Assembly: GCA_963805065.1 (NCBI GenBank)
Contig: CAWDSS010000017.1
Span: 64,726-128,725, forward strand
Origin: Candidatus Omnitrophota bacterium
GTDB lineage: Bacteria > Omnitrophota > Gorgyraeia > Gygaellales > Profunditerraquicolaceae
Reading direction: 5' to 3'
Length of the DNA: 64,000 nt
Shown here in pieces: positions 11,629 through 47,161 of the stretch. The notes under the pieces were generated by a model. That model was not told the origin of the DNA and ran no database searches. It saw only the letters and a program-made list of their open reading frames with translations. The position numbers and the translations under genes were made by a program. Position 1 is the stretch's first letter. Every line of letters starts with the position of its first letter.

Positions 11629-14181
11629 TTATTTCATGTGGGATTTTATCCAGTCTATTCTTTCTTGCGCAAATTTGGATTCTTCCACATTCATGGGGAT
11701 AATCTTTTGGTACACATTGAGCGCTTCTTTGAAATTTTCCTTATCTTCATAAATTGCCGCAACCCTAAGAAGTGCCTTGACTGACAGGTTGTTTTCGGAA
11801 TAAAGGTAAGTGACTTTTAAATATTCTTCAATTGCCTGATCGTACTTGCCTTCTGCCTGCAATACCTCGGCGATTTTAAACTGCAGCCCAGCCATTTCCC
11901 TTGCAGGTACAATATCTAGGCTCTTACGATAATAATCTATGGCTTCCTGAAAATTGCCAAGCTTGTAAAATAAATTTGCGATTTTAGGATAGATGAGATT
12001 AACCAGATGGGGATACTTTGTTACGGCATTTTGATATTCGCTAAGCGCTAAATCGGTCTTGCCTATAGTGACGTGCAAATCGGCGATGGCGATAGCTGCC
12101 TGGCCTGCGAGGTCTGTCTTTCCCATCTCGATGACCTTTTTAAAATTCTCCAACGCCTCTTCGTGCTTGGCTTCTTCTTCGTAGCTTGAGCCTAATGCAT
12201 AGTAGGCATCGGCGATGAGGTTGCTTTTAGGGAAATCTTGTATGAGAGAAGAGAAATACCTGCGCGAAAGGGATAAATCATTATGCCTGTAATAATACTC
12301 CCCTAGCCACCACATAATCTCTGCGGTTAGCCCAGAGTCGGGATATTTTGACCTTAAAGCCTTGAATCTATTCATGGCTTCCTTTTCATTGCCCATCTGA
12401 TAGAAACAATCTGCGATTTCATATTCTGCTTTTTGGGTTAACTCTGAATCCTGGTTATATGTCTTTGCAATGTTTTCAAACACTTCAATTGCCTGGTCGT
12501 ATTTGCCTAGGTTAAATAAACTGCTCCCTAAAAGATAGAGTGCCTGAGATTTTAGTTTTAAATTGCTGTCCTTAAATTCATCCTGAAATTTTGCAAATAT
12601 CTCCTGGCTTGAGTTATAATCCTGCCTCTGAAAATATGTTAATCCCATGGCATAAGAAGCATCGGCCAAAAGCTTGGATTGGGGAAAATTATTCTTTAGG
12701 TTTGAAAAACTCAAGATTGCCCCGTCATAGTTAGATTCTTTAAGCAATGTAAGGCCTAATTGATACTGAACGTAGTCGCTGTAAAAACTGTCGGGATAAT
12801 CCTTTAATATAGAATCGTATGCCTCCTTAGCCAAATCATAATTGCCTGCATCCTGGTATGCATCTCCTATCTGGCAAAGCGCACTTACTTTGACGACCTT
12901 ATCTTCGCTTTCTTTGGCTATCTTCTGAAATTCGCTTATGGCGTCTTTGAATTCTCCCTGTTTTAAATAAGCCCAGGCAAGCCCATAATGAATTTTGTCA
13001 ATCATTTCCGCAGGTATATTTTCAGACCCTGTTTCAGCAAGCCCCTCTTTATATACTTTAATAGTTTCCGGGTATTTTGCCTGGCTATAAAGCGCATCAG
13101 CCTTGCCAAGAAAAGCCTGGGCCAAAACAAGCGGGTCTTGTGTCTTATTCAACAAGTCGTCATAGGCCTTAATTGCATCGTCTGTCTTATTTGTCTCAAC
13201 CAAAAGAATCGCCTTCCCCAAAAGCAACGCATCGTGGCTGCGTTTCTCTAAACTATCCACTTTAATACCGCTGAACATTCCTTCTGCTTCTTTGTACTGT
13301 TTTAACTTAAGATGGCACCAGCCTAAACCGAGCCTTGCCAAGCCTATCATTTTGTCGTCACGGGTGTTTGCGATAGCCTTGGAGTATTTATCAAGCGCTT
13401 CTTTAAAATTATTCGAGTAGAAATCTGCTTCCGCCCAATAAAAATAAAGATAGGAAAAACTTACGGATTCATTCGAATAAACCTTAAGGTAATTTTTAAC
13501 TTTTTCCTTAAGCCCCGCATAATCTTTTAAATTATAAAGGCATTCTATGGTCTTGAATAAAGCGTCTTTTGCCTGCGGCTCTTTGGGAAATTTAGAAGCT
13601 ACGAGCTTAAAATATTCTAATGCGAGGTTAAAATCATGTTCCTGAAAAGCACACCAGCCCAACGAATAATATGCCGATGCGCTAAATCGCGATTTAGGGA
13701 AATCATCTATTATCATCTTGTAGTAAGAAGCAGCCTTAGCGAAGTTATTACCCTTAAAATGCACCTCTGCCATCCAATACAATATCTCATCTTTAATATT
13801 TTTTGCGGAAGGATCAGCTAAAAGCTCTTCAAATTTGGCAAGGGAATCCAGGAATTTATTCTGGTGGAATAAGCATTCTCCGATCAATAAATTTGCTTCT
13901 GCTGTGTTCGTTGAATTTGGGTAACTTTTTAAAAACCGCTCAAGGAGCCCCAAGCTTACATCATAAAATCCGTCATCAAATGCCTTCCTTGCCACAAACA
14001 GCGCTTCCTCTTCTTTGGCCGAATCCTGGGCAAAGGAAGAATGACAAATCCCAAAGCACGAAATCCAAAATAAGCACAAAGCACAAATTACAAAACTTAA
14101 AATAAAGGGGACGTTTCTATTTTTCTGCTGATTAGGAGACGTTAAAAATAGAAACGTCCCCTTTTCTTTGGGTTTTGTCAT
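11629..14181 (-). CDS. Large secreted TPR-repeat protein
   Basis: 850 aa of tandem TPR-like repeats (YbgF/CpoB-like units). Signal-peptide-like FILSFVICALCLFWISCFGICHSSFA|QD. The first ~25 codons are encoded by the 64-nt hairpin element at 14104..14164, so the true start is uncertain. Confidence 0.75.
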   Translation of the reverse strand: MTKPKEKGTFLFLTSPNQQKNRNVPFILSFVICALCLFWISCFGICHSSFAQDSAKEEEALFVARKAFDDGFYDVSLGLLERFLKSYPNSTNTAEANLLIGECLFHQNKFLDSLAKFEELLADPSAKNIKDEILYWMAEVHFKGNNFAKAASYYKMIIDDFPKSRFSASAYYSLGWCAFQEHDFNLALEYFKLVASKFPKEPQAKDALFKTIECLYNLKDYAGLKEKVKNYLKVYSNESVSFSYLYFYWAEADFYSNNFKEALDKYSKAIANTRDDKMIGLARLGLGWCHLKLKQYKEAEGMFSGIKVDSLEKRSHDALLLGKAILLVETNKTDDAIKAYDDLLNKTQDPLVLAQAFLGKADALYSQAKYPETIKVYKEGLAETGSENIPAEMIDKIHYGLAWAYLKQGEFKDAISEFQKIAKESEDKVVKVSALCQIGDAYQDAGNYDLAKEAYDSILKDYPDSFYSDYVQYQLGLTLLKESNYDGAILSFSNLKNNFPQSKLLADASYAMGLTYFQRQDYNSSQEIFAKFQDEFKDSNLKLKSQALYLLGSSLFNLGKYDQAIEVFENIAKTYNQDSELTQKAEYEIADCFYQMGNEKEAMNRFKALRSKYPDSGLTAEIMWWLGEYYYRHNDLSLSRRYFSSLIQDFPKSNLIADAYYALGSSYEEEAKHEEALENFKKVIEMGKTDLAGQAAIAIADLHVTIGKTDLALSEYQNAVTKYPHLVNLIYPKIANLFYKLGNFQEAIDYYRKSLDIVPAREMAGLQFKIAEVLQAEGKYDQAIEEYLKVTYLYSENNLSVKALLRVAAIYEDKENFKEALNVYQKIIPMNVEESKFAQERIDWIKSHMK
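14104..14164 (-). terminator. 64-nt hairpin element, copy 1 (probable uvrA terminator)
   Basis: Arms AAAGGGGACGTTTCTATTTTT (14104..14124) and AAAAATAGAAACGTCCCCTTT (14144..14164) are perfect complements. On the minus strand TTTATTTT follows. Located 40 nt after the uvrA stop. A second copy is at 35177..35234. Confidence 0.65.
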
Positions 14182-14204
14182 TTGTCATTAACTATATCAT
14201 TGCT

Positions 14205-22773: not shown

Positions 22774-23595
22774 TTAAGAGCCTACTTTAACCGGCTCCAA
22801 AATTTGTTTTAAAGTTGCCGCGGCTGATAACACTGCCAGATAACTTGTCTTGGGATTATTAGGATGAATAACGTTTTCGGTCCTGGCGGTAATTTTACCG
22901 CAGTCAGATTCAATTTCTATTTCGTGAATATTGTTGGTTACATTCGGTGAGGCAATTATACGCACAAGCGTATCTATCGGCCCAATTCCGGCGATACTCA
23001 ATGTTACCGCTACGTTAATATTCTGCGGAAACGCCCTTATGGCTGTCATGGCGTTACCTTCAAAAATAACGGTTTCCTCCGAGATATTATCCAACCTGAT
23101 CTGTCTTTTCAATACGTAAGGATTGCCTAAAAACGCCTTCGCAGGTTTCTTGGTAGTCAGGGTAACTTTGTTAATTTTGCCTACGGAGGCTGCCTTTAAA
23201 CCGTCAATGCCGCATATGGCACCCGAAGGAATAAAAATATGCGCATTTTTTTCTTCGGCAAACAGGAATAATTCTTTGTAATTCTCAACAATGCCCCCTA
23301 CACTTAAAATCATTATGTCCTTGGAAAGCGCAAGAGTTTTTTTGATTATCTCTACCACACTATCCGGTTTAGTAGCCTCAATAATCAAATCTGACTTATT
23401 GATTAAGCTTTCAAGATTTAGAACCGTCAACTTTTGATTATTAAGATTATGCGCCAAACTGTAGGCCTTTTCCATATCGATATCAAAAATTCCTGATAAC
23501 TGCGCTTTTTGTGAGAATTCTTTGGTAATGTAACTGGCCAGAGAAGAGCCTATAGCACCACATCCTACAATTCCTACTTTTAATAACTTTGGCAT
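22774..23595 (-). CDS. nadX: L-aspartate dehydrogenase
   Basis: VGIVGCGAIG, FIPSGAICGIDGLKA, FPQNINVAVTL and NNPKTSYLAV parallel the Thermotoga NadX motifs. I use ATG 23595 because the ORF-track start 23616 is a TTG inside a repeat. Confidence 0.8.
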   Translation of the reverse strand: MPKLLKVGIVGCGAIGSSLASYITKEFSQKAQLSGIFDIDMEKAYSLAHNLNNQKLTVLNLESLINKSDLIIEATKPDSVVEIIKKTLALSKDIMILSVGGIVENYKELFLFAEEKNAHIFIPSGAICGIDGLKAASVGKINKVTLTTKKPAKAFLGNPYVLKRQIRLDNISEETVIFEGNAMTAIRAFPQNINVAVTLSIAGIGPIDTLVRIIASPNVTNNIHEIEIESDCGKITARTENVIHPNNPKTSYLAVLSAAATLKQILEPVKVGS

Positions 23596-23611
23596 ATGAA
23601 TTAACGTAAAA

Positions 23612-23706
23612 GTCAAAACGTAAAAATAAAAACTGCAACTTAAAACTAAAAACGTTTTAAGTTTTGCGTTGCAGTTTTGCGCTTTGAGTTTTTAGTTTTG
23701 AGTTTA
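23612..23706. repeat. Palindromic block of A/T-rich heptamer repeats at the panC/nadX junction
   Basis: (N)AAAAC(N) units on the left and GTTTT(N) units on the right, centred on AACGTT at 23651..23656. An 11-bp perfect stem AAAACTGCAAC/GTTGCAGTTTT is present. The block encodes the last ~15 aa and the stop of panC. Confidence 0.75.
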
Positions 23707-24541
23707 CAATGATATTATCAATTAGCCTAGCCTTTCCTATCCAAACAGCTAAAGCAATCAAAGCCCTGCCTCGGATTTTAGTTAACGGGCGAAGGGTTTT
23801 AGAATCCACTACGCATATATACTGGATTTTGGCGCTTTTTTTCTTATTTATCATCTGTTTCATTTTGCTGACTAAAGCTGGCGCGTTTAGTTCTTTTTGG
23901 CCTATCAATCTTTTAGCCAGCGTTAATGCCTGATATAAAACTGCAGCATCTTTCCTCTCGTTAAAGTTAAGGTACTTATTTCTAGAACTCATGGCTAAAC
24001 CATCTGCTTCTCTTGCGGTAGGCATAACCTTCACTTTAACAGGCATATTTAAATCCTGGACCATTTTCTCTATGATTATTGACTGCTGGGCATCCTTTTG
24101 CCCAAAATAAGCCGTATCGGGTTTAACAATATTAAATAATTTAATTACCACTGTAGCCACGCCTTTAAAATGCCCCGGACGAAACCCGCCGCACAAGAGT
24201 CCGCTTAAATCATCAACAGACACGTATGTTTGATAACCTTCGGGGTACATGCTTTTAGCCGAAGGGGAAAATACTATATCAACCTCTGCCTTTTTACAGA
24301 GTAATGTATCTTGCTTTAGATTACGGGGGTATTTAGCGAAGTCTTCTTTAGGCCCGAATTGAACGGGATTAACAAAAATACTAACGATAACAAAATCATT
24401 TTCTTTGCGAGCCTTACGAATGAGGCTAAGATGGCCTTCATGTAAAGCTCCCATGGTGGGGATGAAACCTATTGTCCTGCCGCGTTGCGTTATCCTATTA
24501 GCTGTATTTGACATTCGCCTTAAGCTGCTGATTATTCTCAT
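23657..24541 (-). CDS. panC: Pantoate--beta-alanine ligase
   Basis: GFIPTMGALHEGHLSL and overall PanC architecture. ATGA overlap with the folK stop. Confidence 0.93.
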   Translation of the reverse strand: MRIISSLRRMSNTANRITQRGRTIGFIPTMGALHEGHLSLIRKARKENDFVIVSIFVNPVQFGPKEDFAKYPRNLKQDTLLCKKAEVDIVFSPSAKSMYPEGYQTYVSVDDLSGLLCGGFRPGHFKGVATVVIKLFNIVKPDTAYFGQKDAQQSIIIEKMVQDLNMPVKVKVMPTAREADGLAMSSRNKYLNFNERKDAAVLYQALTLAKRLIGQKELNAPALVSKMKQMINKKKSAKIQYICVVDSKTLRPLTKIRGRALIALAVWIGKARLIDNIIVNSKLKTQSAKLQRKT

Positions 24542-24939: not shown

Positions 24940-24945
24940 TTCAAT

Positions 24946-24988
24946 AAGCTCACAACTTACGGAACAAGGTGAACGTAAGTTTGGGCTT
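24946..24988. repeat. AACTTACG-type palindromic element, copy A
   Basis: AAGCTCACAACTTACG-gaacaaggtgaa-CGTAAGTTTGGGCTT, between the dapL stop and the folK start. Confidence 0.7.
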
Positions 24989-26151
24989 CATTTGTGTATT
25001 TTACTCAGTCGCCTAAATGCCTCTTTTATTCTTTCCCTTGATACAGTAAGCGCCATACGGATGTATCCTTCACCGTTCTTGCCAAATCCTGTTCCGGGAG
25101 TGACTATGATATCTGCTTTTTGTAATAAAAACCCCGCAAATTCTATGGAGTTGGTATTTTTCGGCAGTTTAATCCATACATAGAAAGTCGCTTTGGGAAT
25201 CCTCGCCTGCCAACCTAAAGATTCTAATCCTGAGACTAAGGTATCGCGTCTCTCCTGATAAAGGCTACGCATATTTTCTATATGCTCCTGCGGCCCCTCT
25301 AACGCGGCTATTCCTGCGAATTGTATCGCGGAAAATATTCCTGAATCAATGTTGGATTTTACTTTTGCTAAGGCAGATATCAAATTCCGGTTACCACAGG
25401 CCCAGCCGATACGCCAACCTGTCATATTGTATGTTTTGGAGAGAGAATGGAATTCTATTGCTACGTCTTTAGCACCTTCTATCTCTAAGAAGCTAGGCGG
25501 ACTAAACCCGTCATAAGCTATTTCAGAATAAGCCAAATCAGAAACCACAATTATTTTGTGTTTCCTGGCAAATTCAATAACATCGCGATAAAACGATTTT
25601 TGCGCAATAGCTGAAGTAGGATTATTAGGATAATTAATAAACATTATTTTTGCTTTTTTAGCTACGCTTGCAGGTATTTTTTTTGTGTCTAGCAGGAAAT
25701 TATTTGATTCCAAAAGCGGCATCAAATAAGGTTTGCCTCCGGCAAGGATTGTCCCTCCTTTGTAAGGAGGATAGCCGGGATCCGGGACTAATGAATAATC
25801 CCCCGTATTCAAAAATGCTAACGGTAAATGAGCAATCCCCTCTTTTGAGCCTATAAGAGGAAGAATTTCGCTATCGGGATTAAGATTCACGTTAAAACGT
25901 CTTTTATACCATCCTTCGATAGCGCGTCGCAAAGCCGGCATACCCTGATCTAAAGCATAGCGATGGTTTACGGGATCCTGCGCAGCACTATACAATGCCT
26001 CAATTATATGTTTAGGCGTCGGCTGATCAGGATCGCCTACTCCTAAATCAATAATATCCCTGCCTGATGCCACGGCTATTCTTTTGGCTTTATCAATTTC
26101 TAAAAAAGGGTAAGGCGGCAATGATTGTAATTTCTTAGATAAATTAAACAT
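24988..26151 (-). CDS. dapL: LL-diaminopimelate aminotransferase (class I/II aminotransferase)
   Basis: LPPYPFLEIDKAK N-terminus and the PLP-lysine motif SLSKTYNMTGWRIGW. Context with dapA/B/F and lysA. Confidence 0.8.
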   Translation of the reverse strand: MFNLSKKLQSLPPYPFLEIDKAKRIAVASGRDIIDLGVGDPDQPTPKHIIEALYSAAQDPVNHRYALDQGMPALRRAIEGWYKRRFNVNLNPDSEILPLIGSKEGIAHLPLAFLNTGDYSLVPDPGYPPYKGGTILAGGKPYLMPLLESNNFLLDTKKIPASVAKKAKIMFINYPNNPTSAIAQKSFYRDVIEFARKHKIIVVSDLAYSEIAYDGFSPPSFLEIEGAKDVAIEFHSLSKTYNMTGWRIGWACGNRNLISALAKVKSNIDSGIFSAIQFAGIAALEGPQEHIENMRSLYQERRDTLVSGLESLGWQARIPKATFYVWIKLPKNTNSIEFAGFLLQKADIIVTPGTGFGKNGEGYIRMALTVSRERIKEAFRRLSKIHK

Positions 26152-26209
26152 TTTTTACTTTTGCCTTTAAACTTTTAACTTTTGGCTTTTTCCTTTTAAC
26201 TTTTACTTA
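26152..26209. repeat. Tandem A/T-rich heptamers (plus strand CTTTTNN) at the dapB/dapL junction
   Basis: tactttt gccttta aactttt aactttt ggctttt tcctttt aactttt acttaac. Includes the dapB stop codon. Confidence 0.7.
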
Positions 26210-26912
26210 ACACATCTTGCATTGAATACAAGCCCGGCGGTTTTCCAAAAACCCATTTCGCTGCCTTAAGAGCTCCCACTGCAAATAAATCCCTGGTATG
26301 AGCCTGGTGTTTTATTTCAATGCGCTCTGAGTTCCCGCAAAAGATTACTGTATGGTCTCCCACAATATCTCCTAATCTTATAGCATGGACAGGGATCTCT
26401 TTTTTAGTTACATCTGAGAGAATCTGGCCAAATTTCTTTGCCGTTCCCGAAGGCGCATCTTTTTTCCCCCTGTGATGCGCTTCTACAATCTCGATATTAT
26501 AATCCGGGCCTAGCCTTTTTGCTATTTCAGGCAGCATCGAGAATAAGACATTGACTCCCACGGACATATTGGGAGAAAACACTACCGGTACAACTTTAGA
26601 AATATCTTCGACTTTTCTTATTTGGGTATCGCTTAAACCTGTTGTGCCTAATACGAATGCTTTTTTATACCTGGCAACATAATCCAAATTAACTTCTGTC
26701 GCCTCCGGGATTGTAAAATCAATAAACACATCAATTAAAAACAGGCCGTCGGCACTAGAGGAAATCTTCAGCTTCCCCATGTCCTTACCAATCATGGGAG
26801 TGCCTTTCTTCTCCAGCGCTAATGTCAATTCAAAATCCTTGTCAAAAGACGCCAGCTCAAATATTCGCCTGCCCATCCTTCCACAAGCACCGGCAATACC
26901 TAATTTTATCAT
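26196..26912 (-). CDS. dapB: 4-hydroxy-tetrahydrodipicolinate reductase
   Basis: GACGRMGRR N-terminus, EAHHRGKKDAPSGTA motif, SD AAGGAGAG. Confidence 0.93.
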   Translation of the reverse strand: MIKLGIAGACGRMGRRIFELASFDKDFELTLALEKKGTPMIGKDMGKLKISSSADGLFLIDVFIDFTIPEATEVNLDYVARYKKAFVLGTTGLSDTQIRKVEDISKVVPVVFSPNMSVGVNVLFSMLPEIAKRLGPDYNIEIVEAHHRGKKDAPSGTAKKFGQILSDVTKKEIPVHAIRLGDIVGDHTVIFCGNSERIEIKHQAHTRDLFAVGALKAAKWVFGKPPGLYSMQDVLSKS

Positions 26913-27886: not shown

Positions 27887-28688
27887 AGTATTCTCCTTTA
27901 TGGACTATCCTTACTTTACCTTCCAGCCAGACTTCCCTAAAACTTCTACCCAGTTTTTTAAAAAATACCCGTAATAATTCATTACTTTTAGTCTGCACCT
28001 GCACTTTACTAACAGCCCTTGTCTTTAAGGCAAAAATCAGGGCTGCCGCTACTGACCCAGTCCCACAGGCAAGCGTCTCATCTTCCACTCCTCTTTCGTA
28101 TGTGCGTATGGCAATTAAATTGTCTTTCAGCACTTCTACAAAATCTACGTTTGTGCCTCGGGGAGAAAATTTATGATGATAGCGTATTGCCTGGCCTATC
28201 TCATCAACATCTATATCTTTAAGCCCTTCTACGAATATTACGGCATGAGGAACGCCTGTATCAATGAAATTAATTTTAATATTCCTCTTATTAACTTGCA
28301 GGGGGATATCTAATTTAAGGTCCCTGGGATTTGTTAGTTTTATTTTTACATCGCCATTATTGATATAAGATTCAATAATTCCAACTTTGGTTTCGATTCT
28401 TGGGTTCTGGGTTCTAGGTTTTAGGTTCTTGCTTAGCCAAAAGGCAACGCACCTTGCCCCATTACCGCACATTTCAGCCTCTGAACCGTCGGCATTGAAG
28501 ATGCGCATTTTGATATCGGCAAGCCCAGATTTCTCTAAAAGCAATAAACCATCTGCTCCTATTCCATATTTCCTATCGCATATTTTCTTAGCTAAAGCAG
28601 TTGGGTTCTTGATTTTATTACCCCTGTTATCGACAATCACAAAGTCATTACCGGAAGCAACCATTTTGCTGAATTTAAGTTTTTGCAT
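27879..28688 (-). CDS. dapF: Diaminopimelate epimerase
   Basis: ASGNDFVIVDN and both catalytic Cys motifs (MCGNGARC, ACGTGSVAAA). Confidence 0.93.
   Translation of the reverse strand: MQKLKFSKMVASGNDFVIVDNRGNKIKNPTALAKKICDRKYGIGADGLLLLEKSGLADIKMRIFNADGSEAEMCGNGARCVAFWLSKNLKPRTQNPRIETKVGIIESYINNGDVKIKLTNPRDLKLDIPLQVNKRNIKINFIDTGVPHAVIFVEGLKDIDVDEIGQAIRYHHKFSPRGTNVDFVEVLKDNLIAIRTYERGVEDETLACGTGSVAAALIFALKTRAVSKVQVQTKSNELLRVFFKKLGRSFREVWLEGKVRIVHKGEYYV
28395..28429. repeat. Tandem heptamers (plus RGGTTCT, i.e. AGAACCY on the coding strand) inside dapF
   Basis: gattctt gggttct gggttct aggtttt aggttct. Encodes KNLKPRTQNPRI. Confidence 0.8.
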
Positions 28689-28689: not shown

Positions 28690-29958
28690 TTATATTTTAG
28701 CCAGAAACCTGGGTATTATTTCGTTTTTAACCAGATCCTCGCGGGTTTCTCTCTTCCTGATTACAAACGCCCTGTTTTTGACAACCATTACCTCTTGGGC
28801 TTTTAGCCTGGAATTATAATTACTGGACATACTAAAGCCATATGCCCCGGAACTCATAATAGCCAAGTAATCGCCTTCTTTGACTTTAGGCAGCTTTCTG
28901 TCTTTAGCAAAGAAATCAGCGCTTTCGCAAATTGGACCTACTATATCTACTCTCTCGATGCTCTTTGCTCGATGCTCGATGCTCGTAGGCAAAATCTGAT
29001 GGTATGCATCGTATAAAGCAGGCCTGATTAAATCATTCATCCCTGCGTCTACGATTATAAATTCCTTTTTAGGAGTCCTTTTAATGTATAAAACTTTTGT
29101 CACGAGTATGCCGGCATTGCCAATAATAAACCTTCCGGGCTCCATGATAATGCGTAGTCTTGTTTCTTTAAGTAACGCTAAGACTCTTTGAGCGAATTTC
29201 TGGGCAGTTTGAGGCGTTTCTTTATTATAAACTATTCCTAATCCTCCTCCGATATTAAGATATTCCAGAGTAATGCCCTTGTGCCTTAATTTGCCTATGA
29301 AATCCACTATTTTATTAATAGCGCAAATGTAGGGCGCCCCTTCAGTTATCTGGGAACCTATATGTATATGCAGCCCCGAAATCTTTAAATTAAAAAACCT
29401 ATCGCGCATTAACAGGATATCGTATGCACTTTTAAAATCTATCCCGAATTTATTGGTAAGTTTTCCCGTCGTGATATATTTGTGGGTTTTTGGCTCTACA
29501 TCCGGATTGATGCGTATTGCTACTCTTACAATCTTGTTTAGTTTCCTGGCTATGCGGTTAATGTTTTCTAATTCAGGCAGTGATTCTACGTTGAAAAACA
29601 GGATTCCCCTTCTTATCGCTTCTTCAATTTCTTTGTCTGTTTTCCCTACTGAAGCATAAACGATTCTGCTTGCAGGACAGCCTGCTTTAATTGCGCAAAA
29701 GAGCTCTCCCCCTGAAACAACATCCAGGCCTGCGCCTCTTTGAACCAGCGTCCTAAGGATAGCTAAATTAGAATTGGCTTTAACCGAATAGCAAATTAAA
29801 GGTTTAATCTGCCTGAAGGCATCTGTTAGCTTGTTAAAGTGGTCGATAATAGTCTGATAGCTATAGATATAAAGAGGCGTCCCGAATTCTTTAGCCAGTG
29901 CCTCTACTTTTACCTGTTCACAAAAAAGTTGATTATTCCTATATTTAAATTCGTGCAT
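28690..29958 (-). CDS. lysA: Diaminopimelate decarboxylase
   Basis: CYSVKANSNLAIL (PLP Lys), NIGGGLGI, GPICESADFF. Confidence 0.95.
   Translation of the reverse strand: MHEFKYRNNQLFCEQVKVEALAKEFGTPLYIYSYQTIIDHFNKLTDAFRQIKPLICYSVKANSNLAILRTLVQRGAGLDVVSGGELFCAIKAGCPASRIVYASVGKTDKEIEEAIRRGILFFNVESLPELENINRIARKLNKIVRVAIRINPDVEPKTHKYITTGKLTNKFGIDFKSAYDILLMRDRFFNLKISGLHIHIGSQITEGAPYICAINKIVDFIGKLRHKGITLEYLNIGGGLGIVYNKETPQTAQKFAQRVLALLKETRLRIIMEPGRFIIGNAGILVTKVLYIKRTPKKEFIIVDAGMNDLIRPALYDAYHQILPTSIEHRAKSIERVDIVGPICESADFFAKDRKLPKVKEGDYLAIMSSGAYGFSMSSNYNSRLKAQEVMVVKNRAFVIRKRETREDLVKNEIIPRFLAKI
28954..28988. repeat. Tandem heptamers CTCGATG inside lysA
   Basis: ctcgatg ctctttg ctcgatg ctcgatg ctcgtag. 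Encodes PTSIEHRAKSIER. Confidence 0.8.
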
Positions 29959-31330
29959 ATAATTTCTTATCCCAATTGTTTATTTGTTTTTTTACTAATC
30001 CCGGGCTAGTCCCTCCATAGGATTTTTTCAAGTTAACCGACGCCTTAACATTAAGAATGCCTTTGACTTTCGAGTCCAATTTGGGGCAATATTTCTTAAG
30101 TTCATTGGGGCTTAGGCTGGAAATATTTTTGCCTTTGTCCAAACACTCCTTGACTATTTTACCAACGATGTCGTGTGAATCCCTGTAAGATACGCCTTTC
30201 TTAATTAAATATTCCACTATATCTACAGAGAACAATGATTCATCAGTTAGCTTCGCCGCTATGGCTTCTTTCTCAATTACGATATTGCCAAATAAGGCAA
30301 TGGATATCTCTAAAATATCCTTTAAGGTGTCTACTGAATCAAAAAGCGGCGGCTTATCCAGCTGCAAATCCCTGTTGTAAGACATGGGCAATCCTTTCAT
30401 TAATATAAGCACATTGTAAAGGTCCCCGTGTATTTTTCCGACAGAGCCTCTGATGAGCTCTAAGACATCTGGATTTTTCTTATGCGGCATAATGCTTGAA
30501 CCGGTGCAAAAAGAAAAATCTATGTCAATAAAATTAAATTCTTTGGTTGACCACAGAATAAGGTCTTCTGCTATCCTGGACAAATGAACTGCCAGAATCG
30601 ATAAATCTGCCAATAGTTCAATGATAAAATCTCTGTCGCTTACGCCGTCAATGCTGTTAGCTGTAAGATTTTTGAAGCCCAGTTCTTTTTTTACAAAGTC
30701 TCTGTCAATGGGTAAACCTGTTCCGGAAAGCGCGCAACTGCCCAAAGGCATATAATCTGTTCTTTTCTTTGCATCAAGTAATCTTTCTCTGTCTCTCTCC
30801 AAACCTTCAATATATGCAAGTAAATGATGGGCCAATAGTACACATTGCGCTATCTGTAAATGCGTATAGCCTGGTATTATTACTTTTGAATTGGTTTTGG
30901 CAAATTTTAAAATTGATTTTTGCAGTAATGAAATTGACTCTTCTAAATCATCTATTTCATCCTTAATATACATCTTGACATCCAATGCTATCTGGTCGTT
31001 TCTGGAACGAGCAGTATGCAATTTGAACGCCACCTTACCAACTTTTTTCAAAAGTACGGCTTGAACATTGGAATGGATGTCTTCTGCTTTAGGGTCAAAT
31101 TTAAATTTCCCCTTGTTTAGGTCTTTTAAAATTAAATCAAGTCCCTTTACAATAAGCGCGGCATCTTTGACCGGGATAATGCCCTGCTTTCCCAGCATTT
31201 TGGCATGGGCAATACTGCCTAAAACATCATACTTGGCCAATCGCTTATCAAAAGAAATACTGGAAGTAAATTTGTCCGTCAAGAGATTAGTTTTCTTGGG
31301 AAATCTTGTTCCCCACAGTTTCTTCGTCAT
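29945..31330 (-). CDS. argH: Argininosuccinate lyase
   Basis: Fumarate-lyase signature SSIMPHKKNPDVLEL. 461 aa. Confidence 0.95.
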   Translation of the reverse strand: MTKKLWGTRFPKKTNLLTDKFTSSISFDKRLAKYDVLGSIAHAKMLGKQGIIPVKDAALIVKGLDLILKDLNKGKFKFDPKAEDIHSNVQAVLLKKVGKVAFKLHTARSRNDQIALDVKMYIKDEIDDLEESISLLQKSILKFAKTNSKVIIPGYTHLQIAQCVLLAHHLLAYIEGLERDRERLLDAKKRTDYMPLGSCALSGTGLPIDRDFVKKELGFKNLTANSIDGVSDRDFIIELLADLSILAVHLSRIAEDLILWSTKEFNFIDIDFSFCTGSSIMPHKKNPDVLELIRGSVGKIHGDLYNVLILMKGLPMSYNRDLQLDKPPLFDSVDTLKDILEISIALFGNIVIEKEAIAAKLTDESLFSVDIVEYLIKKGVSYRDSHDIVGKIVKECLDKGKNISSLSPNELKKYCPKLDSKVKGILNVKASVNLKKSYGGTSPGLVKKQINNWDKKLYARI

Positions 31331-31372
31331 TTTTTCCTCTTTTAGTTTTGCGTTCTATCCAGAATGAACCTT

Positions 31373-31428
31373 AGTTTTGCGTTTTTCCTTTTGCGTTTTA
31401 CTTTTACCTTTTTACTTTTACCTTTTAT
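31373..31428. repeat. Tandem A/T-rich heptamers at the argG/argH junction
   Basis: agttttg cgttttt ccttttg cgtttta cttttac cttttta cttttac cttttat. TTAGTTTTGCGTT also occurs at 31342..31354. Includes the argG stop. Confidence 0.75.
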
Positions 31429-32599
31429 AAGGCATTCCCCATATCTTTATAAACCCTTCAGCTAATTTCTGGTCGAATCTATCCTCTTTGCCGTAGGTAC
31501 TTAACTCCTTCTTATAAAGAGAACGACTGGATTTTCTGGCTACCGCAACACAGCTTCCTTTAAATAATTTTAACTTTATTGATCCGGTTAGGTGCTTCTG
31601 CGTCGAATCAACGAATTTATCCAAAGCCTCTTTTAAAGGAGAAAACCAGAGGCCAAAATAAACCATCTCTGAATATTTAAGCGCCACAATCTCTTTAAAA
31701 TGCGCCAGCTCCCTGTCCAGCACAAGGCTTTCCAGTTCTTTATGCGCATTATAAAGAATAGTGGCTGCCGGAGCTTCGTAAATTTCCCGGGATTTAATCC
31801 CCACCAATCTATTTTCCACTAAATCCACCCTACCGACTCCGTAAAGCCCTCCTATTTCATTCAGATGGGTGATTAAAGTCTTTAATTTATAGCTCTTCCC
31901 ATCTATCTTTTGGGGAATACCCTTCTCAAAATAAATTTCAATATACTTTGGATACGAAGACTGTCCGGTTGGGCTTTTGGTAATTAAATATGCGTCTTCG
32001 GGCGGCTCTTGTTCCAAATTCTCCAAAACCCCGGCCTCAATACTTATTCCCCATATATTTCTATCGATGCTGTATGGCTTTTTCTTGGTTACATCTATCG
32101 GTATATTGTACATCTTCGCATATTCAATTTCTTCGTCTCTTGACTTAAATTCCCAAACTCTCACAGGCGCGATAATTTCCAGTTTCGGATTCAAAATACC
32201 GACGCTGACCTCAAATCTTACCTGGTCATTGCCTTTACCTGTACAGCCATGAGCAACCGTATCTGCTTTTTCTTTATGGGCTATTTCGACCAGGTACTTA
32301 GCAATCAAAGGCCTTCCTAAAGCTGTAGCAAGTAAATATTTTCCTTCGTATATCGCATCTGCCTTTAATGAAGGCATCACATAATCCTCTAGAAACTCAT
32401 CCTGCAGGTTCTTTATATACACTTTTGATGCGCCTGCAGCAAGGGCTCGTGCTTCAATAGCCTCAAAATCCTCACCTTCTCCCAAGCCCTGGCCTAAGTC
32501 CGCAACAAAACAAATAACCTCATATTCTCTTTCTTTAAGCCATCTGACTATGCAGGAAGTATCTAGGCCTCCTGAATATGCCAATACAACTTTTTTCAT
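31418..32599 (-). CDS. argG: Argininosuccinate synthase
   Basis: AYSGGLDTS ATP-binding motif, 393 aa, SD GGAGGA. Confidence 0.95.
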   Translation of the reverse strand: MKKVVLAYSGGLDTSCIVRWLKEREYEVICFVADLGQGLGEGEDFEAIEARALAAGASKVYIKNLQDEFLEDYVMPSLKADAIYEGKYLLATALGRPLIAKYLVEIAHKEKADTVAHGCTGKGNDQVRFEVSVGILNPKLEIIAPVRVWEFKSRDEEIEYAKMYNIPIDVTKKKPYSIDRNIWGISIEAGVLENLEQEPPEDAYLITKSPTGQSSYPKYIEIYFEKGIPQKIDGKSYKLKTLITHLNEIGGLYGVGRVDLVENRLVGIKSREIYEAPAATILYNAHKELESLVLDRELAHFKEIVALKYSEMVYFGLWFSPLKEALDKFVDSTQKHLTGSIKLKLFKGSCVAVARKSSRSLYKKELSTYGKEDRFDQKLAEGFIKIWGMPYKR

Positions 32600-33026: not shown

Positions 33027-33941
33027 TTATTTCAATAGCTTAATAAGTATTGCTTTTTGCACATGCAGTCTATTTTCTGCCTGATCAAAAACCACGGAAT
33101 GCCTACTCTCCATAACCTCATCAGTTATCTCCTGGCCCCTATGTGCAGGCAAGCAATGCATAATCAAGGCGTTATCCTTAGCAAAGCTTACCAATTTGCT
33201 GTTAACCTGGAATCTCTTGAACACTTTTTCGCGTTTAGCCGCTTCCTCCTCCTGGCCCATACTTGCCCAAACATCCGTGTAAATTACATCTGATCCTTTT
33301 ACTGCCATTACAGGATCATTAAATAAATTTAGGGAGGCCTTTGTGTGTTTGGCAATAGCCTTTGCTTCTTTTACAACTGATTTTTGAGGCTCATATTCCT
33401 TAGGAGTTGCCACATTCATATTTACGCCGCATTTAGCACAAGCATAAAGCAAAGAATTACAGACATTATTTCCATCGCCCACATAACTTAAGGTTAACCC
33501 TTTCAATTTTTTGAATTTCTCTCTTATGGTGTATAAATCCGCTAACGCCTGACAGGGGTGCTCAAAATCGGATAAGCCGTTAATTACTGGCTTATCCGAA
33601 TATTTCGCCAACTCTGAAACATTCTTATGTTCAAATGTCCTTAAGACTACAACATCTGCATATCTTGAAAGCGTTTTAGCCACATCCTCGATGGATTCTC
33701 TAACTCCTAAATTTATTTCATTAGGAGCCAGGTACAAGGAATTTCCACCCAACTGATACATACCCACTTGAAAAGAAACCCTGGTTCTATTAGAAGGCTT
33801 CTGGAAAATTAATACCAGTGACTTACCAGACAAGGCCCTGTTAAACTTTGCCTTATTTTTCTTAAGCTGGTCAGTTAAATCAAATATATTTTCTATTTCT
33901 GCAGTAGTTAAATCTTTAATAGATATGAGGTTTTTTTTCAT
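33027..33941 (-). CDS. argF: Ornithine carbamoyltransferase
   Basis: FQKPSNRTRVSF and HCLPAHRGQE motifs. Confidence 0.95.
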   Translation of the reverse strand: MKKNLISIKDLTTAEIENIFDLTDQLKKNKAKFNRALSGKSLVLIFQKPSNRTRVSFQVGMYQLGGNSLYLAPNEINLGVRESIEDVAKTLSRYADVVVLRTFEHKNVSELAKYSDKPVINGLSDFEHPCQALADLYTIREKFKKLKGLTLSYVGDGNNVCNSLLYACAKCGVNMNVATPKEYEPQKSVVKEAKAIAKHTKASLNLFNDPVMAVKGSDVIYTDVWASMGQEEEAAKREKVFKRFQVNSKLVSFAKDNALIMHCLPAHRGQEITDEVMESRHSVVFDQAENRLHVQKAILIKLLK

Positions 33942-33943: not shown

Positions 33944-34006
33944 TGCTTTCAGCTCTCAGCCTTCAGCTTTCAGCTGATGACTGACAGCTGATGACTGAAA
34001 GCTAAA
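33944..34006. repeat. Nine tandem heptamers (AGCTTTC... then AGCTGAT/GACTGAA) across the argD stop / argF start
   Basis: tgctttc agctctc agccttc agctttc agctgat gactgac agctgat gactgaa agctaaa. The two halves are partly inverse-complementary. Encodes the argD C-terminus FQSSAVSHQLKAEG*. Confidence 0.8.
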
Positions 34007-35167
34007 CACGCTGTCCAATATGTTAATGGTCTTATCAATCTCTTTTTTGGTTATATTCAATGCGGGCATTAACCGAAGCACCTTATCGTGCGTGCAATTA
34101 ATCAATAAACCCAAAGTCAAGCATTTTTCCACTACAGGCTTTCCTTCGGTATCTAATTCAATGCCGGCCATTAATCCTATTCCTCTTACTTCTCTGATAA
34201 TTTTGTATTTATTTTTTAATGCGTTCAATTTCATAAAAAGATACTCTCCTGACTTCTGCGCGTTGTTAAGAAGCTTCTCTTTTTGTATCGCAGTCAATAC
34301 TGCAAGCGCTGCCTTGCATATTACAGGGCCGCCGCCGAATGTGGAAGCATGCATACCAGGCCCTAGTGTATCTGAAATCTCATTTTTGGCTACCATTACA
34401 CCTATCGGTAATCCTCCTCCGAGGGCCTTAGCTAAGGTCATAATGTCCGGGGTTATCCCATAATGCTGGTAACAAAAGAATTTGCCTGTCCTGCCCACGC
34501 CTGTCTGGACTTCATCTACAATTAAAAGCAATTTTTTTTCATCGCAGATCTTCCTTAAAGATAAAACAAACTCTTTGCTTGCCACGTTTATGCCGCCTTC
34601 GCCCTGGATTAATTCCAGCATTATGGCTACGGTCTTGTCGGTTATTGCTTTTTTAACTTCCTCTATATCATTGAACTTAACCGTCTTAAAACCTTCTGGC
34701 AGGGGCTCAAAACCACTCTGATATTTTTTCTGTCCTGTTGCAGCCAGTGCAGCAAGGGTTCTGCCATGAAAAGAATTTTCAAAAGTTATAATTTCAAATC
34801 TTCCCTTGCCGAATTTACGGCTGAACTTTATTGCCGCCTCATTTGCCTCAGCTCCCGAATTACAAAAAAATACTTTACCGGGAAATGTCCGGTAAATTAT
34901 CTCCTTGGCCAATTTTGCCTGAGGTATGTGATAATAATTATTCGGTATAAATATAAGTTTGGAAATCTGGTCGCGTACTGCCTGCATAACCTTAGGATGG
35001 CAATGTCCTAAATTACCCACTCCCCAACCGGGGAAAAAATCCAGGTAAGCTTTTCCTTTAACATCCCAAAGTTTTGAGCCTTTCCCTTTAACAAATACCA
35101 GGGGAATCTTGGTATAGGTTGGCATTATATTTTCTTGATAACTTTGTAGGACTTCTTCTATTTTCAT
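33956..35167 (-). CDS. argD: Acetylornithine aminotransferase
   Basis: DEVQTGVGRTGK and TLAKALGGGLP (PLP Lys) motifs. Confidence 0.93.
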   Translation of the reverse strand: MKIEEVLQSYQENIMPTYTKIPLVFVKGKGSKLWDVKGKAYLDFFPGWGVGNLGHCHPKVMQAVRDQISKLIFIPNNYYHIPQAKLAKEIIYRTFPGKVFFCNSGAEANEAAIKFSRKFGKGRFEIITFENSFHGRTLAALAATGQKKYQSGFEPLPEGFKTVKFNDIEEVKKAITDKTVAIMLELIQGEGGINVASKEFVLSLRKICDEKKLLLIVDEVQTGVGRTGKFFCYQHYGITPDIMTLAKALGGGLPIGVMVAKNEISDTLGPGMHASTFGGGPVICKAALAVLTAIQKEKLLNNAQKSGEYLFMKLNALKNKYKIIREVRGIGLMAGIELDTEGKPVVEKCLTLGLLINCTHDKVLRLMPALNITKKEIDKTINILDSVFSFQSSAVSHQLKAEG

Positions 35168-35176: not shown

Positions 35177-35234
35177 AAAGGGGACGTTTCTATTTTTCCT
35201 CTAAACTGGAGACGTTAAAAATAGAAACGTCCCC
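35177..35234 (-). terminator. 64-nt hairpin element, copy 2 (between argB and argD)
   Basis: Same arms as copy 1 (AAAGGGGACGTTTCTATTTTT / AAAAATAGAAACGTCCCC). The loop also contains GGAGACGTT, and the minus strand continues TTTATTTTAAAA-ATG(argD). Confidence 0.6.
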
Positions 35235-35244
35235 ATTTTTTCAC

Positions 35245-35279
35245 AGTTTTGCCTTTTTACTTTTACGTTTTGAGTTTAT
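35245..35279. repeat. Tandem A/T-rich heptamers at the argB stop
   Basis: agttttg ccttttt actttta cgttttg agtttat. Includes the argB stop at 35276. Confidence 0.65.
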
Positions 35280-36130
35280 TTTACTATCTCCGTTCCCACA
35301 CCCTGATCCGTGAATATTTCCAACAATAACCCGTGAGGAGTGCGCGCATCAATGATGTGTGTCTTCTTTACTCCCTTAGCCAGCGCTTCAATGCAAGCAG
35401 CTACCTTCGGGATCATGCCTTGCTGAATAATATTATTTTCTGCCAAGCCTTTTGCTTCTTCTGTGCTCAGAGTAGAAATAAAAGAATGGGGATCATCGGC
35501 ATTTCTCATAATCCCCTTAACGTTGGTTAACAAAACCAGTTTTTCCGCTTCTAATCCGGCAGCAATGCTTGCTGCAACTTCATCCGCATTAACATTGTAC
35601 GTTTTCTTGTCTTTACCCCTGCCCATAGGTAAAATTACCACGATTTTATCTTTTCTCAATTCATCTACCAAGGGTGCGGTATCTATCTGGGTAATATGCC
35701 CCACCAAACCCAAATCTACATTAGCCTTCTTTTTCTCAACCTGGATTATGTTTTTATCTTTACCGTTTATACCTGCGGCTTTTGCTCCTAACTCATCAAT
35801 TTCTTTTACTATTAAAGTATTCAGGTTTTGCAGTTCTTCCTCCACTAGATTAAGCGTCTCCTCATCAGTTACGCGCATGCCGTTTACAAACTCGGTTTTT
35901 TTGCCTGAGGCCCGCATTCGGTCGCTGATATTAGGCCCGCCGCCATGCACCAGTACCGGGCGTAAACCCATGAAATTTAAAAACACGATATCCTCCAATA
36001 CGCCCCTCCTTATCTTCTCTTCTCCTAAAATACTTCCGCCATATTTTATGACAATTGTTTTCTTATGGAATTTTTTAATATAGGGAAGCGCCTCAATAAG
36101 GACATCTGCTTTTCTAATTGCTTCTTCCAT
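35276..36130 (-). CDS. argB: Acetylglutamate kinase
   Basis: VIKYGGS and LVHGGGP motifs. 284 aa. Confidence 0.95.
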   Translation of the reverse strand: MEEAIRKADVLIEALPYIKKFHKKTIVIKYGGSILGEEKIRRGVLEDIVFLNFMGLRPVLVHGGGPNISDRMRASGKKTEFVNGMRVTDEETLNLVEEELQNLNTLIVKEIDELGAKAAGINGKDKNIIQVEKKKANVDLGLVGHITQIDTAPLVDELRKDKIVVILPMGRGKDKKTYNVNADEVAASIAAGLEAEKLVLLTNVKGIMRNADDPHSFISTLSTEEAKGLAENNIIQQGMIPKVAACIEALAKGVKKTHIIDARTPHGLLLEIFTDQGVGTEIVK

Positions 36131-38309: not shown

Positions 38310-38348
38310 CACATGACTTACGAACACGAAGTGTGAGTAAGTTATGTC
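38310..38348. repeat. AACTTACG-type palindromic element, copy B (argC 5' leader)
   Basis: CACATGACTTAC-gaACACgaaGTGTga-GTAAGTTATGTC, 19 nt upstream of the argC ATG and downstream of the predicted promoter. Confidence 0.65.
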
Positions 38349-38365
38349 TTCACTTGAATGTTTTC

Positions 38366-38394
38366 ATCATAAATCAAATTTCCCTCGACGTCAA
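38366..38394 (-). promoter_or_regulatory. Sigma70-like promoter of the arg operon
   Basis: Minus strand reads TTGACG (38394..38389), a 17-nt spacer, then TATGAT (38371..38366). About 70 nt upstream of argC. Confidence 0.5.
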
Positions 38395-38454
38395 GCATTT
38401 TCTCGTCGGACTGACGACCATACACCGTTATGAATCTATATACATGGAAATCAG

Positions 38455-38527
38455 TTTTGCGGGTGGCTTGGACTGATTCCGAGCCGCATGATGCGGCGAG
38501 GAACAGTCCAAGACAGGACCCGCAAAA
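38455..38527. other. Long near-perfect hairpin flanked by inverted TATGAATCTAT repeats (function unknown)
   Basis: TTTTGCGGGT..CTTGGACTG..GCCGCAT-g-ATGCGGC..CAGTCCAAG..ACCCGCAAAA. Outer inverted 11-mers lie at 38429..38439 and 38534..38544. Confidence 0.5.
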
Positions 38528-38540
38528 ACCGCAATAGATT

Positions 38541-38579
38541 CATAAAACAAAAAATCCCGCGTTCCAGCAGCGGGATTTT
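38541..38579 (-). terminator. Rho-independent terminator after rpsI (bidirectional in shape)
   Basis: AAAATCCCGC-gttccagca-GCGGGATTTT. The minus strand continues TTGTTTTATG. Confidence 0.7.
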
Positions 38580-38620
38580 AATTTATTAGCTAATTGTAAG
38601 ATTAAATGCCTATTATTCTC

Positions 38621-43054: not shown

Positions 43055-43068
43055 GGAATCCTTTCCTT

Positions 43069-43329
43069 TTAGATTTCTTCCACTAATTTTATGGTTGATT
43101 TGTTTAAAATTATCGCGTTGTTCTTCTTAAGCATCTCCGTAATAAGTTTGAACGATTTTATTTCTTTAAGATTACTGAATTCGGCATTTGTAATGGCTAT
43201 AAAACTTTCCCTGGTATCATTCAGGAAGTCGATTATCCTTTCCCCGGGGTTGATGTGCACAAAGCCCTCCACTAATAAATTATCATGGCAAATAACGCTG
43301 ACTTTACGCTTTTCTTTTTCTACTCTCAT
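43069..43329 (-). CDS. Hypothetical small protein (86 aa)
   Basis: ATG start with SD GGAAGGAGAG inside the leuD end. No recognised motif. Confidence 0.5.
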   Translation of the reverse strand: MRVEKEKRKVSVICHDNLLVEGFVHINPGERIIDFLNDTRESFIAITNAEFSNLKEIKSFKLITEMLKKNNAIILNKSTIKLVEEI

Positions 43330-43330
43330 C

Positions 43331-45694: not shown

Positions 45695-45700
45695 ATTGGA

Positions 45701-47054: not shown

Positions 47055-47070
47055 CGTTAATGAACCCATA

Positions 47071-47097
47071 ACCCAGCACATAATTTATGTGCTGGGT
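47071..47097. promoter_or_regulatory. Perfect 13+1+13 bp palindrome 17 nt upstream of fabF
   Basis: ACCCAGCACATAA-T-TTATGTGCTGGGT. Confidence 0.6.
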
Positions 47098-47161
47098 AAG
47101 TTCGGACAGATAAGTTATGTCGGCTACAATCTTAATTTTATACTCCATAACTTATGTCCTC

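Follow-up and report, generated by a model that had tools for sequence, protein, structure and literature searches.

Heptanucleotide tandem arrays at gene junctions and in enzyme loops of Omnitrophota resemble the STRR of cyanobacteria

The DNA analysed here is a stretch of 64,000 nt (the window) from a Candidatus Omnitrophota bacterium (contig CAWDSS010000017.1, positions 64,726 to 128,725). At five of its gene junctions, panC/nadX, dapB/dapL, argG/argH, argB/argD and fabF/leuC, the spacer consists largely of tandem units 7 nt long. Nearly all genes of the window lie on the minus strand, including every gene at these five junctions, and NCBIfam agrees with the names that a preliminary description had given them. 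The best relatives of the window's ArgG are at most 87% identical and come from 80 species-level genomes, nearly all labelled Candidatus Omnitrophota; the best relative of DapL among 5.8 billion proteins is 83% identical, and an exact-protein look-up with the window's ArgG gave no match. The junction genes, as assigned by NCBIfam, are the following.

22774-23595, minus strand: nadX
23657-24541, minus strand: panC
24988-26151, minus strand: dapL
26196-26912, minus strand: dapB
29945-31330, minus strand: argH
31418-32599, minus strand: argG
33956-35167, minus strand: argD
35276-36130, minus strand: argB
44435-45694, minus strand: leuC
45807-47081, minus strand: fabF

Tandem Repeats Finder (TRF) was run on the window together with 80 related Omnitrophota loci, 1.12 Mb in total, and was complemented by a scan for A-runs lying 6-8 nt apart. 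TRF detects period-7 arrays at four of the five junctions (23603-23633, 23654-23705, 26152-26206, 31371-31427, 45700-45751 and 45760-45812), and the A-run scan recovers the remaining one at argB/argD (35244-35280). Periodicity was measured as lag-7 identity and compared with 2000 dinucleotide-preserving shuffles of each junction region. Lag-7 identity is 0.59-0.71 at the five junctions against 0.28-0.43 in the shuffles (p<=0.0005 at four junctions, about 0.01 for the 5-unit argB/argD array), and it exceeds even the best of lags 3-12 found in the shuffles. The 7-nt periodicity of the junction arrays is real and far stronger than in shuffled sequence, which is the comparison that the preliminary description had put forward. 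The consensus suggested there, (G/T)NAAAAG, is also near the actual coding-strand unit, (G/T)(A/C/T)AAAA(G/C). The five arrays are laid out as follows.

23603-23708, minus strand: panC/nadX two-armed array (sequence, TRF, lag-7 z=5.6, RNA fold); 5' arm on the mRNA at about 23660-23708, (NNAAAAC)n, coding for the last ~13 PanC residues; 3' arm at 23603-23650, (GTTTTNN)n; panC stop at 23657-23659 and nadX ATG at 23593-23595
26149-26209, minus strand: dapB/dapL one-armed array of 8 units, GTAAAAG TTAAAAG GAAAAAG CCAAAAG TTAAAAG TTTAAAG GCAAAAG TAAAAA (TRF periods 7, 14 and 21; lag-7 identity 0.71 against 0.41 shuffled)
31372-31428, minus strand: argG/argH one-armed array of 8 units (lag-7 identity 0.71 against 0.43 shuffled)
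35244-35280, minus strand: argB/argD one-armed array, the weakest one, with 5 units (lag-7 p about 0.01); argB stop at 35276-35278
45697-45815, minus strand: fabF/leuC two-armed array (TRF periods 7, 21 and 28; lag-7 z=6.2; RNA fold); 5' arm at 45760-45815, (GTAAAAA/GCCAAAAG...)n, starting at the fabF stop (45807-45809); 3' arm at 45697-45755, (CTTTTNN)n; leuC ATG at 45692-45694

The description of these junctions as simple tandem arrays fits dapB/dapL, argG/argH and argB/argD, whereas panC/nadX and fabF/leuC are inverted pairs in which the first arm is (AAAAGNN)n and the next its reverse complement, (NNCTTTT)n. Nor is the phasing strict, as had been claimed: units of 6 and 8 nt are present, and in places super-periods of 14 and 21 nt, which reach 84-100% identity in TRF, score higher than the single unit. 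The relation of the arrays to the upstream genes was seen correctly, since the panC, dapB, argG, argB and fabF stops all lie within array units and the last residues of the upstream proteins are encoded by repeats, 1-3 residues each in DapB, ArgG and ArgB and about 13 in PanC. PanC, 294 aa long, extends beyond the end of its profile at residue 280 by those extra residues, with a tail reading ...NSKLKTQSAKLQRKT. On the downstream side the arrays run up to the next start, within 0-10 nt, for dapL, nadX and leuC, but argH begins 42 nt and argD about 77 nt beyond the array. Thus the dapB stop (26196-26198) lies in unit 2 and the dapL ATG (26149-26151) abuts the last unit with no Shine-Dalgarno motif, while the argG stop (31418-31420) is followed, after the array, by a 42-nt non-array spacer with a GAGG Shine-Dalgarno motif of argH's own before the argH ATG (31328-31330), and the argD start lies beyond a separate hairpin element of 56 nt. 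Four of the five downstream genes (nadX, dapL, argD and leuC) start without a Shine-Dalgarno motif, unlike most other genes of the window. The longest-ORF (open reading frame) starts of nadX (23616), leuC (45754) and a tetratricopeptide repeat (TPR) gene (14181) extend into arrays; the true starts of nadX (23595) and leuC (45694) lie downstream of these calls.

The arrays are not confined to these junctions: they are present elsewhere in the window's genome and across the phylum. Their absence from the rest of the genome was what the preliminary description had named as grounds for dismissing them. Over the 1.12 Mb, TRF finds 195 arrays of period 7, where block-wise dinucleotide shuffles give 32.8; enrichment is similar for periods 14 and 21, and other periods are near expectation or at most about 2-3-fold above it. 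Among arrays with at least four copies there are 74 of period 7, 11 of period 8, 7 of period 6 and at most one of any other period. The expansion is specific to 7 nt. The population comprises 121 distinct canonical units, and an identical unit is shared by 5.8% of within-genome pairs of arrays at unlinked sites against 0.9% of pairs between genomes (permutation p<0.0005). Arrays take up 1.83% of the non-coding and 0.24% of the coding nucleotides, and inverted pairs recur in other species (for example at loci L004, L006, L022, L074 and L076). Each genome has its own few units, and the arrays sit in weakly constrained DNA, namely intercistronic spacers and in-frame, variable surface loops. Within this phylum-wide population, the arrays at the five junctions form a single local family, (G/T)NAAAA(G/C).

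Comparison of orthologous junctions, which had also been proposed, shows the arrays to be labile and without sequence conservation. At argG/argH, compared across 76 species, about 17 species carry heptamer arrays of unrelated units (AAAATCC, GTAGGTA, CGTAAAA, GCATATA, GTATTGA, GGTTAAG, GTCACAT and GTTTACC among them), about as many carry a palindrome of the GGGACTGTCCC type, and in the remainder a short spacer and its Shine-Dalgarno motif are all that is present; no array is found at this junction in the window's three closest relatives. The dapB/dapL junction shows the same lack of conservation across species. One species, P0077 (L081-L090, 10 contigs), has the same gene order but no heptamer arrays in 20 kb and no indels, its only repeats with at least three copies being one each of periods 6, 8 and 9. 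Array load thus differs strongly between lineages of Omnitrophota.

Within the window itself there are 14 arrays of at least four unit families. Those beyond the five junctions already described have other units and lie at argD/argF and uvrA/TPR and, in frame, within dapF, lysA, truA and recG. GCTGAAA occurs both at argD/argF and in recG, and GGTTCTA both in dapF and, inverted, in truA.

14044-14204, minus strand: uvrA/TPR-gene junction with (AATGACA)2, a T-rich array of heptamers at 14044-14105, (TTTGTGC/TTTGGGA)n, and one of the two copies of the 56-nt hairpin element
28403-28429, minus strand: in-frame dapF array (AGAACCT)n in a loop near residue 91; other units occur there in 9 other species
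28557-28585, minus strand: in-frame dapF array of period 14 near residue 40 (TRF)
28954-28985, minus strand: in-frame lysA array (CGAGCAT)n in the loop between HQILP and VDIVGPICE; other units occur there in 11 other species
33945-34003, minus strand: argD/argF two-armed array (TCAGCTN)4(GCTGAAA)4 (TRF; lag-7 identity 0.65 against 0.24 shuffled), coding for the last ~15 ArgD residues and the stop (33956-33958) and ending 6 nt before the argF ATG (33939-33941)
39723-39755, minus strand: in-frame truA array (GGTTCTA)n, the reverse complement of the dapF unit at 28403
53991-54023, minus strand: in-frame recG array (TCAGCTY)n, of the family shared with the argD/argF array

After merging, the data set holds 136 arrays, and 59 of them lie in frame and well inside ORFs. 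Several sites within conserved enzymes are hit again and again.

ArgC, loop after the strand RGILETIYVKK: array in 15 of 55 species
LysA, loop between HQILPL and EKVDVVGPICE: array in 12 of 49 species
DapF, about residues 24-28: array in 8 species
DapF, about residues 87-92: array in 10 species
DapF, about residues 220-225: array in 4 species

At these recurrent sites the units differ by species, with at least 10 units at the ArgC and at the LysA loops. The ArgC site, which aligns with a short surface turn of the Thermotoga structure 1vkn, often holds perfect arrays, such as (AAGCCGC)4, (AAAAGCC)5, (AAGCTCC)4, (AAAGGTC)4, (AAAATTC)4 and (GTTCAGA)4, and these have a common AAG core in the same phase, continuous with conserved Lys codons upstream. 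Measured from anchor to anchor, the ArgC loop is 15 residues long in 13 of the 15 array-bearing species and in 13 array-free species as well; since arrays of different units are equal in length, units have turned over without a change of length. Stop triplets occur on the sense strand in 5 of 48 in-ORF units against 23 of 48 on the antisense strand, an asymmetry that junction units lack (32 of 56 against 30 of 56) and that marks a process blind to sequence whose products are then filtered by selection. The suggestion that arrays supply stop codons to the upstream genes therefore stands in so far as the stops do lie in them, but the junction units show no selection for stops, and the supply is incidental. 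Two other origins were set aside: the same in-frame positions recur in dozens of independent assemblies, which speaks against an assembly artefact, and a CRISPR-like or minisatellite reading was rejected in view of the period of 7 and the lack of spacers.

Small palindromic elements are found alongside the arrays. The 56-nt hairpin element is not a heptamer array; one copy lies on the minus strand at 35180-35234, between the argB/argD array and the argD ATG (35165-35167), and a second at 14107-14161, each copy being intergenic and adjoining a heptamer array. A perfect stem of 18 bp, GGGGACGTTTCTATTTTT...AAAAATAGAAACGTCCCC, precedes TTTATTTT / TTTATTTTAA. The element folds at -31.6 kcal/mol (z=-5.3) and gives 4 arm matches in the window against 0.07 expected; it may be an element of the repetitive extragenic palindromic (REP) kind or a terminator-like hairpin. 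Another palindromic element, GGGACTGTCCC(C)G...GGGGACTGTCCC, occurs at 49169-49239 of the window and in 23 of 99 fetched loci, including L004, L007, L009, L013, L016, L020, L022, L031, L033, L035 and L072 (just after argG). It is often placed at argG/argH and dapB/dapL, that is, at junctions that carry heptamer arrays in other species, and looks like a REP-like family of Omnitrophota. Palindromic inserts of 20-45 nt, such as CCCTTCGACTTCGCTCAGGGTTGATGGTGAGCGCAGTCGAACCATC and CCTGCCTGCCGGTAGGCAGG, are found within the ArgC-loop array at L022 (4735-4790), L006, L015 and L024; in three species the insert is in frame, and at L022 it splits argC into two frames. It seems that very small mobile elements use the arrays as landing sites, as was reportedly noted by Elhai in 2008 for the SDRs (small dispersed repeats) of cyanobacteria.

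Array length has a sharp mode at 30-35 nt (~4.5 units, with a focal length of ~32 nt) in spacers and ORFs alike. Near-perfect arrays are bimodal, with either 2-2.5 copies, which is chance-like, or 4-5 copies, and almost none with 3-3.5. The sense strand of the arrays is A-rich (39-40% A against a background of 30-32%), and A exceeds T in 46 of 68 junction arrays; as 1079 of the 1173 ORFs of the data set are co-oriented with argG and the '--' junction arrays all come from the window, orientation to replication and orientation to transcription are inseparable in this strand bias. Among conspecific assemblies, the three contigs of P0055 carry arrays without indels. In the P0015 strains (L094-L097) an array of an 8-nt unit, (CGTTATCC)n, in the 5' region of dapF (about 4400 in the alignment) numbers 4 copies in each of three near-identical strains; L096 has 3, and its dapF gene call is 215 aa long against 263 aa. 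Either natural slippage or faulty assembly may lie behind the 3-copy allele.

At the RNA level the two forms of array part company. The two-armed junctions are predicted to fold into stable hairpins, at -27.3 kcal/mol (z=-3.7) for panC/nadX, -32.1 kcal/mol (z=-6.7) for fabF/leuC and -38 kcal/mol (z=-6.7) for argD/argF, with the panC stop in the apical loop, the fabF stop at the base of the stem and the argD stop in the 3' arm. The one-armed dapB/dapL and argG/argH RNAs are unstructured (-2.6 and -4.0 kcal/mol, z above 0). The preliminary description had also offered the arrays as UP-like elements or as weak terminators, and neither idea is supported. Promoter-like sites on the minus strand are absent from the arrays and from the DNA just downstream of them; since the best promoter candidate (38394-38366) is found upstream of argC, the arrays are intercistronic within a long co-directional operon. 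No terminator-like match overlaps any array: a G+C-rich stem followed by a U-tract is lacking, the stems are A:U-rich and the U-runs lie inside the stem. A scan of the whole window with Rfam 15 gave no match at gathering score.

These observations lead me to favour, as the probable explanation, that the junction arrays are heptanucleotide simple repeats comparable to the short tandemly repeated repetitive (STRR) sequences of cyanobacteria, produced by mis-aligned DNA synthesis in a 7-nt register and retained at permissive sites. Arrays would be made and homogenised by such synthesis, possibly through slippage in replication or repair; strand-switching would yield the inverted, two-armed forms, and multi-unit steps of 14 or 21 nt would also occur. 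The 14- and 21-nt super-periods and the single 4-versus-3-copy difference, in the 8-nt unit of dapF, are consistent with slippage. Purifying selection would clear arrays from all but permissive sites, and for that reason the same spacers and loops would be hit repeatedly. In the mRNA the array would simply be the spacer. As the units contain TAA and 7 shares no factor with 3, any frame would end within three units, leaving the upstream gene with a stop and a short tail. A one-armed array would be an unstructured, A-rich leader at which the downstream start, often lacking a Shine-Dalgarno motif, must initiate or re-initiate; a two-armed array would fold the spacer away as an A:U hairpin, so that the upstream stop and downstream start meet at the base of the stem, and this predicted geometry is compatible with translational coupling. 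Since the arrays are unconserved and their like is also found within ORFs, I take such consequences for the RNA to be side-effects that are tolerated or, at most, put to use secondarily, and do not see in them the reason why the arrays exist.

Several observations weigh against an origin by slippage. Simple stepwise slippage predicts broad or geometric lengths and length polymorphism, whereas a sharp mode is seen, and three assemblies of the L004 species that differ by 26 SNPs (single-nucleotide polymorphisms) have identical arrays with no length variation. The constant length of most ArgC loops is also awkward, as single 7-nt steps are frameshifts in an essential ORF, and slippage leaves the turnover of units of perfect arrays at constant length unexplained. 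The A-richness of the sense strand, together with the four downstream starts that lack a Shine-Dalgarno motif, hints at selection at the RNA level, and no result here accounts for the 7-nt register. Given the focal length, the length-preserving turnover and the sense A-richness, I keep open a more specific process and some RNA-level selection. Such a process is a tentative possibility, in which the arrays would be the footprints of an active, length-preserving heptamer-writing process in Omnitrophota, due to a specific DNA-synthesis or repair activity (or to its loss) and not to ordinary slippage. Weakly constrained patches of ~32 nt would be overwritten repeatedly into perfect 7-nt arrays, with the unit changing while loop length and frame stay fixed; such patches would include in-frame surface loops of essential enzymes, hit at equal positions in dozens of species.

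Other explanations give the arrays a function in the mRNA. One-armed, A-rich arrays might be Shine-Dalgarno-independent landing sites for the ribosome (S1 or standby sites) that tune the downstream cistron, as has been proposed for the TAACTGA repeats of Beggiatoaceae, whose geometry is the same (overlap with the upstream stop, a position directly before the start and rarity of Shine-Dalgarno motifs; PMC4679880). The unstructured, A-rich sense strand of the one-armed arrays, the dapL ATG abutting its array and the missing Shine-Dalgarno motifs of nadX, dapL, argD and leuC all speak for this. I nevertheless consider it unlikely, as arrays are not conserved at the same junctions, their units differ and include G-rich, T-rich and C-containing ones, a normal Shine-Dalgarno motif comes after the argG/argH arrays of other species, in half of the A-rich arrays of the window it is the U-rich complement that lies beside the start codon, and the same arrays occur inside ORFs. 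The two-armed arrays might instead be REP-like intercistronic hairpins that set mRNA stability or processing or gate downstream translation through coupling. Their folding energies and z-scores, the stops in the loop, the 3' arm or the stem base, the downstream AUGs 6-10 nt past the stem, such that upstream translation would melt it, and the recurrence of inverted pairs in other species are all in keeping with such a role. Three of the five junction arrays are one-armed and unstructured, however, the hairpins are not conserved at orthologous junctions, they have neither terminator-like features nor an Rfam match, and strand-switching can produce inverted arrays mechanically, which makes a dedicated hairpin function quite improbable.

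The remaining alternatives concern the arrays as DNA. It is very doubtful that they are cassettes of ~32 nt, written or copied by a dedicated activity (templated patch synthesis, reverse-transcriptase-like or recombinase-linked), or mobile micro-elements. The focal length of 30-35 nt in all contexts, the genome-specific unit families common to unlinked sites in both orientations, the length-preserving replacement of ArgC units and the one species whose corresponding 20 kb is free of arrays, a hint of a lineage-specific activity, would fit; yet a site-specific core and phase are common across species (AAG in ArgC, ACG/CG in LysA) and continuous with conserved flanking codons, which argues for a local origin, while target-site duplications and terminal signatures are lacking and no gene was found to be associated. 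Least probable of all, in my view, are phase-variation contingency loci, through which a host-dependent bacterium would switch its arginine, lysine and pantothenate genes by reversible frameshifts or uncoupling. For Haemophilus hmw1A, phase variation driven by heptanucleotide repeats is described (PMC8262952); in Omnitrophota, units not divisible by 3 stand at recurrent sites in argC, lysA and dapF, one natural variant loses a dapF unit, which truncates the gene call, and one argC is split exactly at its array. Against this, the reading frame is intact in 57 of 58 argC, 56 of 56 lysA and 45 of 45 dapF genes (158 of 159 cases in consensus assemblies), the arrays are short, the sole length variant, of an 8-nt unit, is possibly an error of assembly, and the argC break at L022 comes from an inserted palindromic element and not from slippage.

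Returning to the simple-repeat explanation that I favour, the likeness to STRR drawn in the preliminary description is apt: the unit is of 7 nt and in tandem, there are several genome-specific families dispersed in operon intergenic spacers, and inverted pairs occur occasionally. The STRR of heterocystous cyanobacteria reportedly have the units CCCCAGT, TTGGTCA and CAACAGT, in several genome-specific families within operon spacers and with occasional inverted pairs. The present arrays differ in taxon, Omnitrophota of the PVC (Planctomycetes-Verrucomicrobia-Chlamydiae) group and not cyanobacteria, and in their A/T-rich unit, (G/T)NAAAAG. Their in-frame recurrence in enzyme loops and ~32-nt focal length, as seen in Omnitrophota, are possible further differences. 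The arrays belong to the broad class of heptanucleotide long simple sequence repeats (7-nt tandem unit, dispersed, genome-specific families, mostly non-coding), but with their different taxon and units they are neither STRR in the strict sense nor TAACTGA repeats.

REP sequences and the bacterial interspersed mosaic elements (BIME) of enterobacteria are G+C-rich imperfect palindromes mobilised by RAYT (REP-associated tyrosine) transposases and have no internal 7-nt periodicity. Their likeness to the two-armed arrays is a functional analogy, both being transcribed intercistronic hairpins of operons that are dispersed and strain-labile. Among heptamer repeats proper, three tandem heptanucleotides were described in Calothrix PCC 7601 (Mazel et al. 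1990, as cited in PMC4692102). TAACTGA direct repeats are found in marine Beggiatoaceae, some Cyanobacteria and some Bacteroidetes, in 2-6 copies that give stops in all three frames, with a few in ORFs at protein peripheries, and binding of S1 or Csp (cold-shock protein) has been proposed (MacGregor 2015, PMC4679880). Of the five junctions here, all five have the upstream stop within the array, three have the array abutting the start and four have no Shine-Dalgarno motif, while the argG/argH arrays of other species stand before a normal one, so that the likeness is partial. There, however, one unit dominates with a strong orientation bias and related heptamers are rarely repeated, whereas Omnitrophota have many units per phylum and several per genome, those of the window being (G/T)NAAAA(G/C), GCTGAAA, GGTTCTA and CGAGCAT; inverted two-armed arrays are common here, and internal arrays lie mid-enzyme in conserved proteins.

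The G-rich heptameric repeats GGGAATC of Xanthomonas and GGGGAYT of Nostoc (Rehm et al. 2015, PMC4692102) are likewise intergenic, with some inverted stem-loop pairs, and vary in length and sequence between related strains at one junction; they are quadruplex-capable, whereas the A/T-rich window arrays cannot form a quadruplex. In Nostoc, an influence on expression has been suggested for heptamer repeats that lie close to start codons (bioRxiv 10.1101/2022.06.06.494920). According to the summaries in PMC4679880 and PMC4692102, Mrazek, Guo and Shah (2007) found heptamers to be the most abundant of the long simple sequence repeats of 5-11 nt in prokaryotes and proposed polymerase slippage with a contact of approximately 7 nt as the cause. 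In that survey, as far as those summaries describe it, repeats in ORFs are mainly multiples of 3, whereas 7-nt units are common in ORFs here, and Omnitrophota were not among the organisms sampled. Within a literature coverage that was incomplete, no report of heptamer repeats in Omnitrophota was found.

Some further features of the window are unrelated to the heptamer arrays or lie apart from them. Upstream of recG, the ORF 52265-52930 contains a 45-nt tandem repeat (52465-52559; 2.1 copies, 94% identical) that has nothing to do with the arrays. A family of short inverted repeats, ...ATAACTTACG(N)CGTAAGTTAT..., is intergenic at 24940-24987, 38330-38620, 47100-47496 and 55482-55759. A leuB-like gene (42003-43330) looks broken: its N-terminal part (MFRIAVIPGDGTGPEV...) is in another frame, within a 653-nt 'gap' upstream of the 224-aa ORF 42003-42677, which may reflect a frameshift, a pseudogene or a sequencing error.

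Heptamer repeats have been known in cyanobacteria since 1990, and to my knowledge neither the reason for the 7-nt register nor any function has been established. For the annotation of Omnitrophota, the arrays mean that gene starts and ends beside them are prone to mis-calling. Omnitrophota are a further, uncultured phylum with heptamer repeats, and since dozens of its species share the operon, gains, losses and turnover of units can be read at orthologous spacers and loops. The focal length of ~32 nt and the turnover of in-frame units at constant length constrain models of how such arrays originate. If a heptamer-writing process does operate, comparison of array-rich with array-poor lineages among the hundreds of available Omnitrophota genomes could reveal the activity responsible and would offer a handle on the excess of heptamers in bacteria and on the STRR problem.

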